Notes: generated by a model from the sequence alone, not told the origin. 64,000 bases of DNA from Niabella sp. (GCA_017744795.1 JAGIAQ010000001.1:15403-79402); one strand, 5' to 3'; positions 39,720 through 50,293 are shown, counted from the stretch's first letter. Translations and numbers: made by a program.

Positions 39720-40037
39720 TTAGTGAGGATTAGTTTTGGGTTTAATAAACTTCCATTTGGGGTTTCTTTTGTGATGGTAAACAGAAACAATGACTATGAT
39801 TTCTTTGGCTAAATCAAAATAATACACAAGACTGAATGGGTATTTCTTCAACGATATTTCCCGGAAATTTTTGTAGGTGTTCCGATAGCGCTCCGGGTAT
39901 GTACAGGCTAACAATATAGCTTGCTCCACTGCTGCCACAAAATTGTCTGCGACTTTTGAGCTTTTTTGCTCGTACCATTCAAATGCGTTTTCATATTCGC
40001 TGGCAGCAACAGGATTAAATATATGTTTTAGCGGCAT
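39720..40037 (-). CDS. ParE/RelE family type II toxin
   Basis: 105 aa; A..EY..A..WY.......F, KKYPFSLVY and IVSVYHHKRNP pattern; directly downstream of a small acidic gene. Confidence 0.85.
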   Translation of the reverse strand: MPLKHIFNPVAASEYENAFEWYEQKSSKVADNFVAAVEQAILLACTYPERYRNTYKNFREISLKKYPFSLVYYFDLAKEIIVIVSVYHHKRNPKWKFIKPKTNPH

Positions 40038-42869: not shown

Positions 42870-43022
42870 AAACCCTGAAAGGGTGTAATCCGCTTAACCG
42901 CGCGTGAAACGCGCGGGTTGGCGCCAAACCAATGTTGAACCCCGCAGGGGTTCAACAGCATCTATTGCAATTGAGCCGACGGTTGCACCGCCGGCTACTA
43001 AAGGGAAACCCCGTCAGGGTTT
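42870..43022. repeat. 153-bp multi-hairpin REP/MITE-like element
   Basis: Terminal inverted repeat AAACCCTGA/TCAGGGTTT and five hairpins, including the perfect TGTTGAACCCC-gca-GGGGTTCAACA (42933-42957). Confidence 0.8.
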
Positions 43023-43076: not shown

Positions 43077-45458
43077 TTATTTACCTACCCTAAACGTACT
43101 TTCCGAATAAACCGGCTTGCCATCTTCGGTAATGCCCTGCAATACTATTTTGTAGGTTCCGGTATAATCGGAAGTGAAGCAGTTGATCTGTTGCTTTTTA
43201 TTTCCTTCAGAATGGATATCGGGGTTCCAGAGTAAGGTGGTGCGATAGTCGGGGATGCGCAGATCTCCTTTGTTATTGTCGGCATAGGCCGGACTAAAAA
43301 ATTCGCGTTTTAATTCCAGACCTTCGTAGTCGATGGGAACAGCGGAAGGGTCCAGTTCAAATCCGTCGAATTTAGAATCATAGGTCTGAAAACTCGCAAT
43401 TCCCGAATAAACGGCGGAGCCGATCACAAATCTGCGGGGGATCACATCCAGTTGTTTTACTTTAAAGGGGTCATAATTAAAAATGCTGTTATAATCAGCC
43501 AGCGGAACGCCGTCCAGCAGCACTAAAACCGCATACCGGTAAACCGTCTGGTTCTTTTCATCATAGAGGGTCATCTTCAGTTTCTTATCACGTACCACCA
43601 CGTTAATTGGTGTAACATATTCCCGAAGTACTTCTTCCATTGTCGAAAACCGTTTGTAATTATCCAGCAGATAGGTAATCTCCGGTTTATCATAAAATGG
43701 AAGAGTGTCTTTGTAGGTGGGAATCTGGAATCTGTTCAACTTGTCCTGGCTATAAATATTCTGCGCCTGCATGGCAATGCTTCTTTTCAGCAGCTCGGCG
43801 CTATCAGCCGGGTTCAGATAGAAAGCCGGTTGATAACATACCTTGCTGGCACTATCAGCAAAAGGCGAAATAAGCTCTATCCGATGGGCATCCGGGCTGC
43901 CACTTGATGGAAACGGCTTTATAAATATATCCCCGGGGCCATAGTACCGGGTTACATTAAATCTTACAATGCCGGCGGCATCGCTTGTTGCATTAAAAAG
44001 TCCAAAAGGAACAGAAGGCACGGTCAGGAAGCATTCATTATTCGCCTCGGGTTTATTCGTCCAGGTATTTATGATCCGTGCTGTAACAATATGACCATTA
44101 TATTCGGGAAGAGCCGTCAATTTTTTAGCTGTTGTAATCGGCGTAGTGAATCGTCGCCAGCCATTTACCAGCATCAGGTTTTCAATGGAATTTCCCTGTT
44201 GCGCTTCGGGAGTAAAATAGAATTCCGGTGACTCTATTTTACCGGACAAATGTCGGGTCAGCAACAAATAATCATGGATCGATCCATCTGACAGATCGTT
44301 ACTGTTTGCTGCATAAACCGACAGGGAACCATTGAATGCCTGTGATGGATCGAGGTCTATGGGCACTTGTTCCCGGCTTGCAAAGGCAGTTTTATCGGTA
44401 CTGATCTTAACTCCGGCTGCGGGCAGTTCTCCGGGAATAAAAACCAGCCGTTCGCTAACCGGCTGCCAGTTTTGATTAAACAGGGTGAAATAAACGATAC
44501 CCGTTCCCAGCCGGGATTTGCTTACGTTGTATGCCACACTGTTGTCTGCGCCCATATCAAACGCAACGGCTAATTTATTCGCCTGGTCAGAATGGGCGAC
44601 CAGGTATATTTTCTGCGGCGCCGCTTTTTGTGCAGAAACAATTATTTTATAGGCATCTTTGCCCGCATCGCTTATGCTGATGGTATGCCCGCTTAGTTTT
44701 TGCGTGGGTAGTCCGGTTGTAACAGGCCCCTTGCCCGGAACAGTAATTACGGCAGCATATCGTTTACCATAATGAGGGGTGAAGGTAAACTGGCCCAATC
44801 CGAATCGGGCTGTTTCAAACCGTGCTACGGTATCTGTTTCATTTTCAATGATGCTTCCGCTGGCTGGTATTCCCTTTGTTGTAGCGGGGTCCAATACCTG
44901 CACACCCACTTTCGTTATCAATCCTTCTATCAGGTCGCCTCCCTCGGGAAAGAAATTCACGATAGCATTTTTATTGCCCGCTGTTAGCCCGGAACCATTT
45001 GCGGTTAATGTATTGGAAATAACGATCCGTTTCCTGAAAAATAGTTTGGGATCGCCGTTTTTCATCTGACTGGTATAACATAAAAGGGTGTAGGCACCGG
45101 TACTAATGGTTACCGGAAGGTAGAGGCTGCCGCTGCCCAATCCTTTTTTTAGTTCCACTTTTGATTGTAACACCGCGGTTCCTTTATCATTAACCAATTC
45201 GATGTAAGCAACGGTATTATAGTTTGCTGTTTTGAATCCGGCTGCATTGAGCAGGTATATTTTATACCAGGCAATTTCACCTGCCAGATAGGAGGCCTTA
45301 TCGGTGTGAACAAACGCAACCTCTTTATTATGGGTATATTGTTCCTGTACGGCGGCTAACGACAGTTCGTCCTGGCTTAAGGCCATGGCGGTAATGCCCA
45401 AACCTGTCAGCAGCAGCAGCAATCGTGTACAAGAATATATCAGATAATTTCTATTCAT
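43077..45458 (-). CDS. Macroglobulin (MG2)-like secreted protein of unknown function
   Basis: Signal peptide from ATG 45458; VHTDKASYLAGE.AW.K.Y, FFPEGG.L..G and C-terminal DYRTTLLWNP motifs; no CxEQ thioester. Confidence 0.7.
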   Translation of the reverse strand: MNRNYLIYSCTRLLLLLTGLGITAMALSQDELSLAAVQEQYTHNKEVAFVHTDKASYLAGEIAWYKIYLLNAAGFKTANYNTVAYIELVNDKGTAVLQSKVELKKGLGSGSLYLPVTISTGAYTLLCYTSQMKNGDPKLFFRKRIVISNTLTANGSGLTAGNKNAIVNFFPEGGDLIEGLITKVGVQVLDPATTKGIPASGSIIENETDTVARFETARFGLGQFTFTPHYGKRYAAVITVPGKGPVTTGLPTQKLSGHTISISDAGKDAYKIIVSAQKAAPQKIYLVAHSDQANKLAVAFDMGADNSVAYNVSKSRLGTGIVYFTLFNQNWQPVSERLVFIPGELPAAGVKISTDKTAFASREQVPIDLDPSQAFNGSLSVYAANSNDLSDGSIHDYLLLTRHLSGKIESPEFYFTPEAQQGNSIENLMLVNGWRRFTTPITTAKKLTALPEYNGHIVTARIINTWTNKPEANNECFLTVPSVPFGLFNATSDAAGIVRFNVTRYYGPGDIFIKPFPSSGSPDAHRIELISPFADSASKVCYQPAFYLNPADSAELLKRSIAMQAQNIYSQDKLNRFQIPTYKDTLPFYDKPEITYLLDNYKRFSTMEEVLREYVTPINVVVRDKKLKMTLYDEKNQTVYRYAVLVLLDGVPLADYNSIFNYDPFKVKQLDVIPRRFVIGSAVYSGIASFQTYDSKFDGFELDPSAVPIDYEGLELKREFFSPAYADNNKGDLRIPDYRTTLLWNPDIHSEGNKKQQINCFTSDYTGTYKIVLQGITEDGKPVYSESTFRVGK

Positions 45459-45471
45459 TTTCTCCGGATTA

Positions 45472-46635
45472 TTAAGGCCAGTAGGTTGGTTTTTGAGTAG
45501 ATCCTCCCCTTGCGGTACAGTCCACGCATATGGCTGTAGAGGCATCATATCCATCAGCCGGCGGAGGAGGGTCGGTCCGCTTATTTTGGTTTATCGGAAC
45601 AATCGCCCCGGCGCCAAAATAGGCCTTTGTACTATCACTGTTTTTAATAACAAATTGCAAAGAGCAGCCTTGCTGCAAGTTCCACCCGGGCGGCGAGGCA
45701 ATGAATACCCGTTTTTGCGTTACGGTAGCAGCTGCAATATAGCCGATCACTGTTTCGGACGGATTGGTGACGCAATGTATATTTCCCCGTAATTCTGAAG
45801 GCATCGGGTCAAAAATACTGCCGATCGATTCGGTATTTTTTTTCATCAGGTCATAAAACTCATATGCGGCTTTGTCCATGGCGTATTGTCGTAAAAGAAT
45901 ACTGTATTTAACAGAAAGCCGGTCATCGCCCGACGGGATCTCGTTGATGGGAAATTCATGGATCACATCTGCGGTCAATTTTGCCGAACTGGCAAACAGC
46001 AGGCTGGTGGACTTGCCATACCGCCAGCAGGTATTTACATCTTCCTGCGGAAAGACGCGATACCGCACGCCGGCAGCATCTGCCAGGGGCGATTTGGGGT
46101 CATAAATTAAAGAGGATTGATAATAGCTATGGATCTCCCAGGTTTCATCCCAATCCCAGCGGTAATAGATCGTGTTATTGGCGGGGTCATGCGTATTTAC
46201 ATAAAGCTGCACCCCGTCGCTGTTTGACTTCCAGCCAATGCTGTCAATGGGGGGTGTGATTTTTACCGCTACAAAATCTGACAGGTATTCCTTGCCATCA
46301 CCTGTTTTGATCCGCACCCGGTATTTATTGCTGGCAGAAAGATTCAGGTTGTTGTTCTGATAAATGCCTGCACTGGTCATGGTAAGTTGTTTTGCCGAAT
46401 TATCCGTTCCTTCTACCGTTATGCTTGCATTACTTTCATATGCGGGCTGGTTACCGGAAGCCACTTTTTTCGTGCGGGATACCGTTAATGTTGTAGGGGC
46501 ATTTCCTGCATTCAACACGCCCTCTACCACCAGGTATCCTGTTCCGGTAGATTGTATATCGGGCACGTACCGGTCTTTACAGGAAAGAGCGGAAAAGAAG
46601 AATAATAAACAATAGCAACAATAGCGCAGCCTCAT
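45472..46635 (-). CDS. DUF4249 family lipoprotein
   Basis: Lipobox ALSC from ATG 46635; YLVVEG.L, PPIDSI, AYEFY..M, GSIFDPMP.EL.GNI, ETVIGY and C-terminal C.DC..RGG...KP.YW motifs. Confidence 0.85.
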   Translation of the reverse strand: MRLRYCCYCLLFFFSALSCKDRYVPDIQSTGTGYLVVEGVLNAGNAPTTLTVSRTKKVASGNQPAYESNASITVEGTDNSAKQLTMTSAGIYQNNNLNLSASNKYRVRIKTGDGKEYLSDFVAVKITPPIDSIGWKSNSDGVQLYVNTHDPANNTIYYRWDWDETWEIHSYYQSSLIYDPKSPLADAAGVRYRVFPQEDVNTCWRYGKSTSLLFASSAKLTADVIHEFPINEIPSGDDRLSVKYSILLRQYAMDKAAYEFYDLMKKNTESIGSIFDPMPSELRGNIHCVTNPSETVIGYIAAATVTQKRVFIASPPGWNLQQGCSLQFVIKNSDSTKAYFGAGAIVPINQNKRTDPPPPADGYDASTAICVDCTARGGSTQKPTYWP

Positions 46636-46636
46636 T

Positions 46637-49399
46637 TTAAAAACGAATATTATAGTTAATAAAAGGTATCGCACTCCCAAAGATGGAGAGCTTATAGCCG
46701 TTAGCCACTCCGTTTTCGGAAACAAAATAAACCGAGTAAGGATTTCTTCGGCCAAACAAATTGTAAACGCCGATGGTCCATGAGTTGTGCGTCTTTTGAT
46801 GCACTTTATGATTGCCATCGATATTCATGGAAAAATCGGTCCGGTAATAGTCAGGGATGCGGTATTGGTTCCGGTCCGAGTAGAGCACGCGCACAGAACC
46901 TGCATATACATACTCGCCAACAGGATAAGTAATGGGCCGGCCGGTACTGTAGGTAGAATTAAGCGATAAGCTGAACCGGTGATTGATCTCAAAATTGGCC
47001 ACAACAATGACATCATTCGGCTTGTCGTAGTTGGCGGGATAAAACTGCCCATTATTGATCATAGAGCCCAGGCTAAGATCGGTCGATTTCAACAGGATCC
47101 GGGAATAGGTATAACCGATCCATCCGTTCAGTTTTCCCACCGGTTTTTTTATCAGCAGTTCCACACCATAAGCCTTGCCTTTCGTATTGATCACGTCTGT
47201 TTCGATATGATGATTCATCGTCAATGAAGCACCGGGCTTATAATCCAGGTAGTTTTTGATGTTCTTATAATACACTTCTACCGAAGTTTCGATGGTGTTG
47301 GAGCGCAGGTTTTTATAGAATCCCAACGAAACCTGGTCGCCGATCTGTGGCTGAATATTAGGATCGCTCAGCTTCCAGATATCTGTTGGGGAAATAACAG
47401 TGGTATTGGACAGCAGATGAATGTATTGCCGTAGCGAATTGTAGGACGCCTTTATGGAGAAGGTGGGTGTAAACGCATACCGCGTGGAAAAACGTATTTC
47501 GGGCCCCTGGTAATTTTTTATGAACTTACCTTTTCCATAGGTAACTGTTCCTGTACGGGTGTCATCCGTACGTGGCTGCCCCGCGGCGTAATAACTTACC
47601 GTTTGCGGCCCCAGGTAGGAATAGAACGAATACCGGATGCCGGTGCTGAAGGAAAGTTTGGTTGTAGCATTGAACCGGTGGGTAATATACGCGGCATTCT
47701 CAAGTGCACGTTCCGTATTCAGGGTATCAGGGCGCACCAGCGAACTGTTGGTAAGCGGGTTAAATATTCCGGGTCGCAAACGGTAGGACAGGGAGCTTAC
47801 TCCAAAATCAACTCCGTGTTTTTGATTAATGAAATAAGAAAAGTTCAGTTTTCCGTACAATTGGCGGATGTCGAAAAACAGGTCAAAAGCATTTATGCTA
47901 TTGACGCCGCTATTGATATCGTATTTATAATAATCATAACCGCCGATCAGCTCTGCCTGCAGCCTGCGCGAAAAATTTCTTTTCCATTTAAGGGACGCGT
48001 TCCGGTTACTATAGCTGTAAACAGTATCGCTGTTGAGCTGAAACCGGTCGTTACTATAATAGGCGTTCAGGTAAAGCGTATTGTTAGAGTCGATGCGGTG
48101 GCTTATACCCAGGTTAAAGTCCTGGAAATTGGCTTTGCTTTTGTCATATTCTTTTGGCAAAAGATTGATCAGCCAGTTGGCATAAGTAGCACGGCCGCCA
48201 AAAATAAAGGATGTTTTATCTTTTACGATCGGGCCTTCCAGTTCCAGGCGGCTGGTAACCGGCCCGATGCCTGCCGAGCCCGTGATCTGTTTCTTATTGC
48301 CTTCCCGGCTGTTAATATCCAGTACGGAAGCCAATCTGCCTCCATATTTTGCCGGAATGGAACTTTTGTATAGTTCTACATCCTTCACAATTTCGGGGTT
48401 AAAGGCAGAGAACATCCCAAAAAAGTGAGAAGGGTTGTAGACCGTGGCATCATTGAATAAAATCAGATTTTGATCCGCCGAGCCGCCCCGTACATTAAAC
48501 CCGGTGCTGGCCTCCCCCACGGTTTTTACGCCCGGCAGGGTGGTGATGGCGCGCAAAATATCGGCCTCTCCAAATACCGTCGGGATCTTCTTTATTTCTG
48601 CTATGGTCAAACGGGATAAACCCATTTGCACATTCCGGATATTGCGTGTTTTTGTGGCCGAAATAATAACTTCTTTCAATGTGGGGATCTGGTCCGGAAT
48701 ACTTACGTCCATCCGCCCGTCGTTATATACCATCAGGTTTAAGCTGGTTTCCCTGATCCCAAACCCTGTAATATTTAATGTATGCTTCCCCGGGGGGATA
48801 CTTAATGAATAGTTACCATAACTATCTGTAGTGGTCGAATATTCATTATCGGCCAGCACCGCAATATTGGGCATGGGCTCCCCGGTGCGGGCGCTCTTTA
48901 CGGTGCCAACCAGTACTGCCTGGGGTGCCCGGGCCATGTTTCTGTTGCCAATTTCATAGAGTTTTTCGGTGGAGGTGGGGGCTGTTCTTTTTTTGCCATC
49001 AATGCCGTATTCATTGATTTTTTGAATATTGCTCTGATGGGCGGTCAACGGTTTTTCAGCCTGATAGATCTCCGGCGGCAGGGAAACCTGCATTTTTAGC
49101 CCTCGCGTGATATATACTTTTTTTTCTTTTTCATCGATGGCATAGGACAGCTCTGTCCGCTCCAATGCCTTTGTTAAGGATGCATCCAAGGATTCGTTTT
49201 CCGGCGGCAGCTTTATTAAAAGCGAATCGGTTTGTTGGGCCGGATAATAAAACCGGTGACCGCTCTTTTTTTCAAGCAGCAAAAAAAAGTCGGAAAGACG
49301 CATGCTGTCCCGGTTTGCAGGCACCTCCACCTGTGCGTTTCCACAAACCAGGGCGCAAACGCAAAAAATAAGGAGCAGCGTCCGTTTGTTAATAAGCAT
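46637..49399 (-). CDS. TonB-dependent receptor (non-SusC) with N-terminal extension and carboxypeptidase-regulatory-like domain
   Basis: GEADILR..TTLPGV, GFNVRGG..DQNL, NP.HFFG.FS and YGGRLASVL motifs; C-terminal YNIRF. Confidence 0.92.
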   Translation of the reverse strand: MLINKRTLLLIFCVCALVCGNAQVEVPANRDSMRLSDFFLLLEKKSGHRFYYPAQQTDSLLIKLPPENESLDASLTKALERTELSYAIDEKEKKVYITRGLKMQVSLPPEIYQAEKPLTAHQSNIQKINEYGIDGKKRTAPTSTEKLYEIGNRNMARAPQAVLVGTVKSARTGEPMPNIAVLADNEYSTTTDSYGNYSLSIPPGKHTLNITGFGIRETSLNLMVYNDGRMDVSIPDQIPTLKEVIISATKTRNIRNVQMGLSRLTIAEIKKIPTVFGEADILRAITTLPGVKTVGEASTGFNVRGGSADQNLILFNDATVYNPSHFFGMFSAFNPEIVKDVELYKSSIPAKYGGRLASVLDINSREGNKKQITGSAGIGPVTSRLELEGPIVKDKTSFIFGGRATYANWLINLLPKEYDKSKANFQDFNLGISHRIDSNNTLYLNAYYSNDRFQLNSDTVYSYSNRNASLKWKRNFSRRLQAELIGGYDYYKYDINSGVNSINAFDLFFDIRQLYGKLNFSYFINQKHGVDFGVSSLSYRLRPGIFNPLTNSSLVRPDTLNTERALENAAYITHRFNATTKLSFSTGIRYSFYSYLGPQTVSYYAAGQPRTDDTRTGTVTYGKGKFIKNYQGPEIRFSTRYAFTPTFSIKASYNSLRQYIHLLSNTTVISPTDIWKLSDPNIQPQIGDQVSLGFYKNLRSNTIETSVEVYYKNIKNYLDYKPGASLTMNHHIETDVINTKGKAYGVELLIKKPVGKLNGWIGYTYSRILLKSTDLSLGSMINNGQFYPANYDKPNDVIVVANFEINHRFSLSLNSTYSTGRPITYPVGEYVYAGSVRVLYSDRNQYRIPDYYRTDFSMNIDGNHKVHQKTHNSWTIGVYNLFGRRNPYSVYFVSENGVANGYKLSIFGSAIPFINYNIRF

Positions 49400-49401
49400 T
49401 A

Positions 49402-50115
49402 TTATTGGTTATATAGCTGAGCCGCGGTCAGAATTGCGTCTTCCGCATTTGTTTTGAATTTGATATGTGCTTTCCGGAGCGCCTTTGCAACTACAGACCT
49501 TCTCATCCCGAGGATCGTATATAAGTCTTTTTGTGATTGCACCGGTTGAAAGCGTTTGTCTTTATAGATATAGAATTTACTGATCCAGACAAACTCCCTG
49601 TCGATTTTTGACTGCTGCTGATCGATGGTTTCCCGGATGTATTTTTTCCTTAATATTAAAACCGGCAGCTTTGTTTCGTTTAAGACCTCATAAAATCCGT
49701 CTGTCAATGTCTTATCCACGGAGGGGTCCAGCTTTACAAATTTTCTGTGCTCCAGGTAAAAGGCAGACAGCTTTTGACGGGGCATGATCACGGGCATCAA
49801 TTGTTTGTCCTCAATAAGCAATGATCCGTCATTTGCGTCGTATCTTAAACTGAGATTTTTGTACCATATACTGTCGAAACACACCGCGCCATTGTGCCAT
49901 TTGGCATCGTCTAAAAACGGGGTGCCAATTACTGTCGGGGGATAGGACTCAAACAAACGGCCATTATATATGGGGAGATCGGTCTTGAGATTCTCATAAT
50001 ACGCGGCAGGCAGATAGGTAGAATCTAATGCAAACAAACCGCTTTTGCTTTGCGCAAAAGAAGACCCGGAGGTGATCAATAGTGTTAGAAAAAAAGCGGA
50101 TAGTTTTATTCTCAT
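49402..50115 (-). CDS. Secreted hypothetical protein, first gene of the TBDR-DUF4249 operon
   Basis: Signal peptide from ATG 50115; YNGR...Y.....G.PFL...W..G.V...Y....L.YD pattern; 2-nt gap to the TBDR. Confidence 0.75.
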   Translation of the reverse strand: MRIKLSAFFLTLLITSGSSFAQSKSGLFALDSTYLPAAYYENLKTDLPIYNGRLFESYPPTVIGTPFLDDAKWHNGAVCFDSIWYKNLSLRYDANDGSLLIEDKQLMPVIMPRQKLSAFYLEHRKFVKLDPSVDKTLTDGFYEVLNETKLPVLILRKKYIRETIDQQQSKIDREFVWISKFYIYKDKRFQPVQSQKDLYTILGMRRSVVAKALRKAHIKFKTNAEDAILTAAQLYNQ

Positions 50116-50293
50116 ATGTTTTACAAGAGGCATTCGTACCACATAAAACTAAAAAAAAAGTTCTGTCTGTCAAAATTTCATCCGCCGGCCGGGTCATTGT
50201 GTACAACCGATTGAACAAATGCGACCGTTGTATGGCTTTTTTTAACACCTTTGTCCGGTTGTTTGTAATCACATACTTTTTAAACCCCTTCAT

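Follow-up and report, generated by a model that had tools for sequence, protein, structure and literature searches.

TonB-dependent transporters (TBDTs) govern uptake by Bacteroidota in soil, water and the gut, and the partners that they use outside the SusCD paradigm are barely known. A known system close to the locus reported here is the BT2172/BT2173 pair of Bacteroides thetaiotaomicron, in which a TBDT composed of a CarboxypepD_reg domain, a Plug and a barrel is followed on the same strand by a DUF4249 lipoprotein, and SusD is lacking. Price, Deutschbauer and Arkin have proposed six families of alternative 'lids' for non-SusC TBDTs, DUF4249 among them, with BT2173 being cofit with BT2172 and placed by AlphaFold-Multimer on the barrel's outer face (bioRxiv 10.1101/2023.03.17.533168), and pairs of this type are kept across dozens of genera (PLoS One 2024, PMC11003636). 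Here, we describe a four-gene cassette, g1-g2-g3-g4, located at positions 43077-50115 of a 64,000-nucleotide stretch of a Niabella sp. genome (GCA_017744795.1 JAGIAQ010000001.1:15403-79402; this whole stretch is referred to as the window). It encodes such a TBDT-DUF4249 pair (g2 and g3), which it shares with BT2172/BT2173 in domain composition, gene order and conservation across many genera, but it differs from that pair in that the transporter has an extra N-terminal STN domain, the DUF4249 protein is 387 aa long (against ~270-330 aa) with a Cys-rich C-terminal extension, and two more conserved genes, g1 and g4, belong to the unit. The pairing of a TBDT with a DUF4249 lid is already published; what the cassette adds is the STN domain and two undescribed families of exported partner proteins. 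A first-pass annotation of the window had called the locus an uncharacterised TonB-dependent machine, which is apt for the four-part cassette, on which our literature search found no paper, but not for the pairing at its centre. The search likewise found no paper on MG2/Plug proteins adjoining TBDTs in Bacteroidetes, and Price et al. make no mention of g1-like or MG2-like partners.

Parts of the cassette can also be compared with other systems. In SusC/SusD (RagA/RagB), a TonB-dependent barrel with an N-terminal extension (NTE) before the TonB box is combined with a surface lipoprotein cap encoded by a neighbouring gene. The cassette has the same arrangement, with a putative cap, but contains no TIGR04056 signature, no SusD-family gene and no glycan-degrading enzymes, and its barrel region of ~565 aa is of non-SusC size. 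The FecA/FecR/FecI and PupB/PupR systems (PMC7186176) resemble the cassette in that their transporter begins with an STN domain, and sister loci described below (class B) carry genes for an extracytoplasmic function (ECF) sigma factor and FecR; in contrast, the cassette has no sigma or anti-sigma gene and g1 is unrelated to FecR. Bacterial alpha-2-macroglobulins (A2Ms; Escherichia coli ECAM/YfhM and Salmonella A2M, PDB 5a42 and 4u48) share with g4 a chain of macroglobulin (MG)-type beta-sandwiches and are its best structural matches. However, g4 is composed of 793 aa against ~1,500-1,650, lacks the thioester, the thioester domain, a lipid anchor and an evident bait region, and alone contains an NTE-like and Plug-like insert. 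Finally, Oar of Myxococcus xanthus, which can be compared by shared domains only, is a TBDT that has CarboxypepD_reg at its N-terminus and, like the cassette transporter, is not known to take a small-molecule ligand, but acts in protein secretion, and a DUF4249, g1 or g4 partner has not been described for it (PMC6434023).

A conserved four-gene cassette

The four open reading frames (ORFs) are arranged head-to-tail on the minus strand, with intergenic spacings of 2 nt (g1/g2), 1 nt (g2/g3) and 13 nt (g3/g4), and would be co-transcribed, to judge by this spacing:

49402..50115, minus strand: g1, a 237-aa exported protein with signal peptide MRIKLSAFFLTLLITSGSSFA followed by Q, without a Pfam family
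46637..49399, minus strand: g2, a 920-aa non-SusC TBDT (assigned from Pfam, the family alignment and the tree)
45472..46635, minus strand: g3, a 387-aa DUF4249 lipoprotein of the long form and putative surface lid (PF14054 and lipobox)
43077..45458, minus strand: g4, a 793-aa exported non-lipoprotein, thioester-less and macroglobulin-like (MG2 match and AlphaFold2 model)

Proteins g1, g2 and g4 have a signal peptidase I-type site with A or S before the cleavage and Q at +1, and g3 has a lipobox. Neither Pfam nor NCBIfam detected a SusD-family, enzyme or regulator domain among the four proteins, and the flanking genes are also without a SusD match. These results bear out the first-pass annotation, which had described a tightly coupled operon (gaps of 1-13 nt) of four exported proteins with no SusD, enzyme or regulator, a DUF4249 member with several Cys including a terminal CxxC, and an MG2-like protein without the CxEQ thioester; it had overlooked the STN domain of g2 and the barrel-less NTE/Plug half of g4. 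The nearest homologues of the cassette proteins are found in Niabella soli and N. ginsenosidivorans.

The same annotation had suggested that this gene order recurs in Bacteroidota and had proposed a survey of neighbourhood conservation, which we carried out on 401 Bacteroidota genomes by taking the DNA around matches and searching its ORFs with cassette-protein profiles. As part of the matches was inspected, all locus counts are lower bounds, and the sampled relatives are not independent of one another. Matches were obtained to g4 in 78 genomes, to the g1 profile in 70 and to DUF4249 in 265. All 12 loci that have a close orthologue of g4 show the order g1-TBDT-DUF4249 (one to four copies)-g4, as does one of two more distant loci (L047); at the other (L046), TBDT, DUF4249 and g4 are present and g1 was not detected. 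Weaker g1 matches led to 15 further loci with 16 more cassettes, in which g4 is short (540-625 aa); at one of these loci, the final two genes have changed places. Another nine loci contain TBDT-DUF4249-g4, eight without a detectable g1 and one with a partial g1 match. In total, the TBDT-DUF4249-g4 core is present at at least 38 loci, some with several cassettes, in at least 31 of the 401 genomes and at least six Bacteroidota families, and 30 cassettes have g1 ahead of the TBDT. The gene order is thus co-conserved, as had been suggested, and the cassette is a genuine operon of four genes that is widely kept among soil Bacteroidota.

Gene families flanking the 38 loci recur within a genus only (e.g. 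PNPase upstream in one genus), so that the four genes form a self-contained travelling unit, and beyond this within-genus synteny no conserved flanking gene hinting at a cargo was found. A quick tree-building method was applied to 67 TBDTs, with midpoint rooting used just to draw the tree. In it, the TBDTs of g1-bearing cassettes form one clade of 32 rows with 99% support, which includes g2 of the window, and all TBDTs of g4-containing cassettes fall within one clade of 46 rows, again with 99% support. Within cassettes, the DUF4249 lid alone is multiplied in tandem, up to four copies, and up to at least three cassettes occur per genome. Individual cases are L035 (G383:C9), with four tandem DUF4249 paralogues in one cassette, L060 (G343:C1), with two complete cassettes in tandem, and genome G295, with at least three cassettes (L065-L067).

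Three classes of TBDT-DUF4249 loci

TBDT-DUF4249 loci can be grouped into class A, composed of an STN-less TBDT and a short DUF4249 protein, class B, with the order ECF sigma factor-FecR-STN-TBDT-DUF4249, and class C, the cassette, with an STN-TBDT, a long DUF4249 protein, g4 and usually g1, and without a sigma/anti-sigma pair. An STN region is present on every TBDT that adjoins a g4 homologue, and 20 of 26 sampled TBDTs that have no g4 beside them lack it. At five checked g4-less loci with an STN-type TBDT (L076, L077, L084, L086 and L111), ECF sigma factor and FecR genes are located directly upstream. No such genes were found in or beside the window cassette, and none recurs among the flanks of the 38 loci; the STN 'signalling' domain persists in a cassette that has no sigma/anti-sigma pair. 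In the loci preceded by ECF sigma factor and FecR genes, the DUF4249 module takes the form of a classical cell-surface signalling system, and two more loci, L080 and L090, appear to show the same pattern.

The transporter g2 and the DUF4249 protein g3

The domain order of g2 is signal peptide, STN-like domain, linker, CarboxypepD_reg (NTE), TonB box, Plug, a barrel region of ~565 aa and a terminal F. The features assigned within g2 are:

49100..49330, minus strand: STN-like N-terminal domain, aa ~24-100 (Pfam matches of orthologues, profile and hhalign)
48665..48913, minus strand: CarboxypepD_reg/NTE domain, aa 163-245 (PF13620, 40.2 bits; PF13715, 39.9 bits)
48656..48679, minus strand: putative TonB box, L241-K-E-V-I-I-S-A248 (position before the Plug and pattern)
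48335..48571, minus strand: Plug domain, aa 277-355 (PF07715, 36.2 bits; cut-off 23.9)

The STN region of g2 itself falls below the E=1 threshold for PF07660, yet aligns throughout with its orthologues, of which 12 of 16 N-termini do match this family (best 3.2e-9). The STN profile of the g2 family matches the signalling domain of PupA (PDB 2a02, E=1e-3), and the g2 STN was aligned with FecR C-terminal domains by hhalign with Prob 92%. Plug motifs are conserved across the family alignment, and L241, E243 and V244 of the TonB box, which was assigned by position and pattern, are kept in at least 80% of 32 orthologues. From these conserved Plug motifs and L-x-E-V residues, we argue that g2 is likely to be a working TonB-dependent gate. 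The 565 aa downstream of the Plug have the length of non-SusC TBDT barrels and end in F; the PF00593 barrel profile gave no match in g2 at E<0.1, and no relative was found among PDB sequences. The family profile matches the TBDTs that adjoin short DUF4249 proteins with E values of 1e-150 to 1e-260. An NCBIfam scan of the cassette proteins at E<=0.1 returned neither the TIGR04056 SusC/RagA signature nor any other match, and g2 is thus not a SusC/RagA protein.

The gene for g3 starts 1 nt after g2 on the same strand, and its product is a clear DUF4249 protein (PF14054, 169.8 bits, cut-off 28.5, covering profile positions 2-269 of 269), without a relative among PDB sequences. The lipobox is ALS-C19, and Cys19 is invariant in 36 of 36 cassette homologues. 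As a long-form protein, g3 has a C-terminal extension of ~80 aa, and it carries the following motif:

45517..45528, minus strand: C370-V-D-C373 (C370-x-D-C373) near the C-terminus of g3, invariant in cassette homologues

Apart from the lipid anchor, C203, C370 and C373 are conserved in 36 of 36 and C324 in 35 of 36 cassette homologues; two disulfides between these four Cys probably keep the C-terminal extension in place, a Cys4 metal site being the alternative. A second TBDT-DUF4249 pair is present in the same genome (contig C38:8376-10587, locus L002), in which the DUF4249 protein is of the short form (88.5 bits) and the TBDT gene runs off the contig, without its N-terminal part; the pair is followed by ORFs of 138 aa and 359 aa and has no g4 homologue.

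The exported proteins g1 and g4

The cassette joins two large families without a name, the ~240-aa g1 type and the barrel-less MG/Plug proteins. The signal peptide of g1, MRIKLSAFFLTLLITSGSSFA, ends with A followed by Q, and this Q22 is invariant in homologues. A Pfam scan of g1 gave no matches, and its family, which comprises 6,771 representatives (50% identity clustering, E<=1e-3), has no Pfam entry. The AlphaFold2 model of g1 (pLDDT 85.7, pTM 0.79) has a beta-rich core followed by three C-terminal helices; although this model is confident, its fold had no match in the PDB with E<0.1, and a profile search against PDB sequences was empty. The possibility that g1 is a degenerate form of the periplasmic domain of FecR was rejected, as hhalign gave Prob 0.4% compared with 92% for the control pair STN/FecR_C; kinship with another cassette protein was rejected as well, every hhalign probability being below 9%. 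Distant g1 homologues (E 1e-18 to 1e-25) in which about the first 50 profile positions are missing were seen at loci L068-L072, either solitary or as tandem pairs, and without an adjacent cassette-type TBDT, DUF4249 or g4; at L071, the sole TBDT-like match is weak, on the opposite strand and two genes away from the g1 homologue. Membership of the cassette holds for only a part of the large g1 family.

The signal peptide of g4 ends with S followed by Q, and there is no lipobox. From the N-terminus, the protein is composed of an MG-type beta-sandwich array, a CarboxypepD_reg-like domain, a Plug-like domain and a C-terminal MG domain, without a barrel or a thioester domain:

45078..45317, minus strand: N-terminal MG2-type domain, aa 48-127 (PF01835, 31.6 bits; cut-off 32.8)
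43359..44093, minus strand: CarboxypepD_reg-like (aa ~456-530) and Plug-like (aa ~594-700) domains (hhalign and Pfam matches of homologues)
43080..43340, minus strand: C-terminal MG-type domain with the motif R-x-P-D-x-R-x-x-L-x-W-x-P (conserved motif, beta-sandwich in the model)

The MG2 match, just below the Pfam cut-off in g4 of the window, is found at E<=0.01 in 62 of 62 aligned homologues. The AlphaFold2 model is a beta-sandwich chain (pLDDT 85.7, pTM 0.83), whose best Foldseek matches are complement C3/C4/C5 and bacterial A2Ms (E ~1e-14, prob 1.0); as TM-scores are at most 0.28, g4 shares only the repeated MG fold with these proteins. No CxEQ thioester motif was found in the sequence, and the large helical thioester domain is absent from the model. 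In the C-terminal MG motif, which we take to resemble the MG domains of A2Ms, D737, R739 and W744 are invariant. The short form of g4 lacks ~190 residues of the middle MG array (profile positions 168-353), and the cassette is still kept.

The C-terminal half of g4 is collinear with the NTE-Plug part of TBDTs (hhalign against TBDT aa 160-380, Prob 70%, E=4e-5, 201 columns). A Plug was matched in 10 of 62 g4 homologues, in some of them above the Pfam cut-off, e.g. in P0028 (26.0 bits) and P0043 (25.7 bits), which clear it at the equivalent position and are 38% identical to g4, and scores reach 60 bits in distant g4 paralogues. A profile of this half found no plug in the PDB, and the assignment is based on the Pfam matches of homologues and on hhalign for this reason. 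No TonB-box-like strand was seen ahead of the pseudo-plug, by inspection only. Three barrel-less Plug proteins of B. thetaiotaomicron were set aside without study by Price et al., who name BT1139/BT4200/BT4324 in passing (bioRxiv 10.1101/2023.03.17.533168). In the Niabella genome itself, MG2/Plug-type paralogues of g4 with 793-1306 aa are located at C44:104-2485, C158:34816-37209, C165:10911-13652, C169:22448-25297 and C219:30550-34470. Their neighbours are unlike the cassette, as judged from ORF lists alone, and the barrel-less g4 family hence appears to have roles outside the cassette.

Proposed mechanism and alternatives

From the gene content, domain composition and co-conservation described above, we infer the localisation, physical contacts, transport direction and accessory roles of the four proteins as follows. 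In the model that we favour, and consider somewhat probable, class C loci encode a four-part TonB-dependent importer, in which the STN/NTE extension has g1 and g4 as its partners in the periplasm. Here, g2 would be a BT2172-type non-SusC TBDT, energised by TonB, as suggested by its intact Plug and conserved TonB box, and g3 would be its partner by homology to BT2172/BT2173, probably as a ligand-binding surface lid. To our knowledge, surface proteins of Bacteroidota are either lipoproteins with an export signal or substrates of type IX secretion. Both g1 and g4, exported via signal peptidase I, most likely stay in the periplasm, since their signal peptides are ordinary ones and they lack a lipid anchor, a barrel and a type IX tail. 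The STN domain and the NTE are the only long periplasmic parts of g2. STN domains are protein-docking modules, and the contact between an STN domain and a sigma regulator is structurally established (PMC7186176). Because of this property, the absence of FecR and the presence of g1 and g4 as conserved extras, it is proposed that g1 and/or g4 dock on the STN/NTE part of g2 and act after the gate, either in the reception of cargo or in the control of plug/TonB coupling, and that they occupy the place held by FecR and the ECF sigma factor in sister loci. In this arrangement g4, as an MG array fused to a barrel-less and TonB-box-less copy of NTE-Plug, would receive the cargo or modulate plug/TonB coupling.

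With regard to the cargo, multiplication of the lid alone and the occurrence of several cassettes per genome suggest the logic of nutrient uptake rather than that of a single-copy envelope machine. Of the functions considered in the first-pass annotation, envelope maintenance is for this reason unsupported, tandem lids and multiple cassettes looking like nutrient-uptake loci, and so is import of a protein or large ligand, as lids of the DUF4249 type accompany small substrates according to Price et al. (bioRxiv 10.1101/2023.03.17.533168). A more far-reaching version of the importer model is a new mode of TonB-dependent transport, in which the STN domain recruits g1 and an MG protein with a spare NTE-Plug in place of an anti-sigma factor; we regard this as possible but doubtful, and view with equal doubt the part of it in which the spare plug or the MG array acts directly in gating, cargo hand-over or capture. 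If true, it would reveal a periplasmic half of a TBDT machine, undescribed for any transporter.

Several observations weigh against the importer model. The residues after Cys19 of g3 (K-D-R-Y-V-P-D) are only weakly like the surface-export signal of Bacteroidota, for which reason the surface position of g3 stays putative; of the lid role that the first-pass annotation had assigned to it, it is the partner function that agrees with the cofitness and AlphaFold-Multimer results on BT2172/BT2173. Protein g1 is not obligatory, being missing from nine TBDT-DUF4249-g4 loci, and the association between STN and g4 may stem from one ancestral event rather than from functional constraint. The Plug likeness of g4 in the window is sub-threshold (no PF07715 match at E<0.1), with family-level support and Prob 70%. 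Lastly, many paralogues of g1 as well as of g4 stand alone, away from TBDTs, and five extra g4 paralogues are present in the same genome.

Other explanations differ from the importer model in the role given to g4 or g1. As g4 has an MG2 match in all 62 homologues and its model finds A2Ms and complement C3/C4/C5 as best PDB matches (E ~1e-14), it could be an A2M-like guard serving as a periplasmic protease trap or in envelope defence, with the transporter and lid loosely connected or importing the threat. Macroglobulins without a thioester are known to be at the centre of multi-protein complexes of the envelope, e.g. MagD of Pseudomonas aeruginosa, which fits such a guard. However, bacterial A2Ms are twice as large as g4, which has no thioester motif, helical thioester domain or recognisable bait region, the likeness extends to the repeated MG fold only (TM <=0.28), the cassette persists where short g4 proteins have dropped ~190 MG residues, and multiple cassettes per genome with multiplied lids are unlike a housekeeping guard; a protease trap is, in our view, distinctly unlikely. 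The barrel could also work outwards, exporting or anchoring g4 and/or g1 for surface display, with g4 as a surface ligand-catcher in analogy to surface glycan-binding proteins (SGBPs). Oar, a TBDT with an N-terminal CarboxypepD_reg domain, is needed for secretion of PopC in M. xanthus (PMC6434023), g1 and g4 are exported without another assigned route, and a surface partner was also allowed for in the first-pass annotation. But the common domain is the only tie to Oar, and neither protein has a lipobox or a Por_Secre_tail match (the type IX sorting domain, also searched for as TIGR04183, was found in neither g1 nor g4 with Pfam and NCBIfam), which makes outward transport unlikely.

The position of g1 directly upstream of an STN-TBDT, where class B loci have the ECF sigma factor and FecR, raises the question of a signalling device, in which STN would report ligand binding to g1 as a sigma regulator of a new type, and the STN-to-sigma-regulator contact has a structural basis (PMC7186176). 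In contrast to what such a role demands, the signal peptide of g1 is of the cleavable type, Q at +1 is invariant, and the protein, which contains no membrane span or cytoplasmic domain, is thus unable alone to signal across the inner membrane. Moreover, its hhalign comparison with FecR gave Prob 0.4% where the STN/FecR_C control reached 92%, the surroundings of the cassette contain no conserved sigma factor gene, and nine TBDT-DUF4249-g4 loci do without g1, so that we rate signalling through g1 as very unlikely. That a TBDT-DUF4249 pair merely lies beside two unrelated exported proteins would agree with the many members of the g1 and g4 families elsewhere in genomes, but is contradicted by the conservation survey, in which the set is kept at 38 loci while flanks vary, as well as by the gaps of 1-13 nt and the clade formed by cassette TBDTs; chance neighbourhood is hardly credible.

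One solved complex or one mutant phenotype would give thousands of hypothetical proteins a role, and would also test whether a transporter uses a detached plug-like partner.

Flanking sequences and other features of the window

The cassette is flanked by a divergent aminotransferase gene upstream and a convergent gene of glycoside hydrolase family 35 (GH35) downstream, and two non-coding features adjoin it:

50116..50293, minus strand: upstream intergenic region, common to g1 and the divergent aminotransferase gene; presumed promoter region (sequence; promoter inferred)
42933..42957, minus strand: terminator-like hairpin with an 11-bp stem, ~120 nt past the g4 stop (consensus scan only)

A scan for sigma-70-type promoters gave matches not above shuffled expectation, with a consensus that is unsuited to Bacteroidota promoters, and an Rfam scan of the g1 leader region matched no riboswitch or other RNA element. 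The PADLOC anti-phage defence models had no match for any of g1-g4. The hairpin is the probable end of the operon; since g4 and the GH35 gene converge on it, transcripts of both could be terminated there. Further downstream, at 39720-40037 on the minus strand, a gene for a 105-aa ParE-family toxin (PF05016, E=7e-11) is located directly after a gene of glycoside hydrolase family 36 (GH36).

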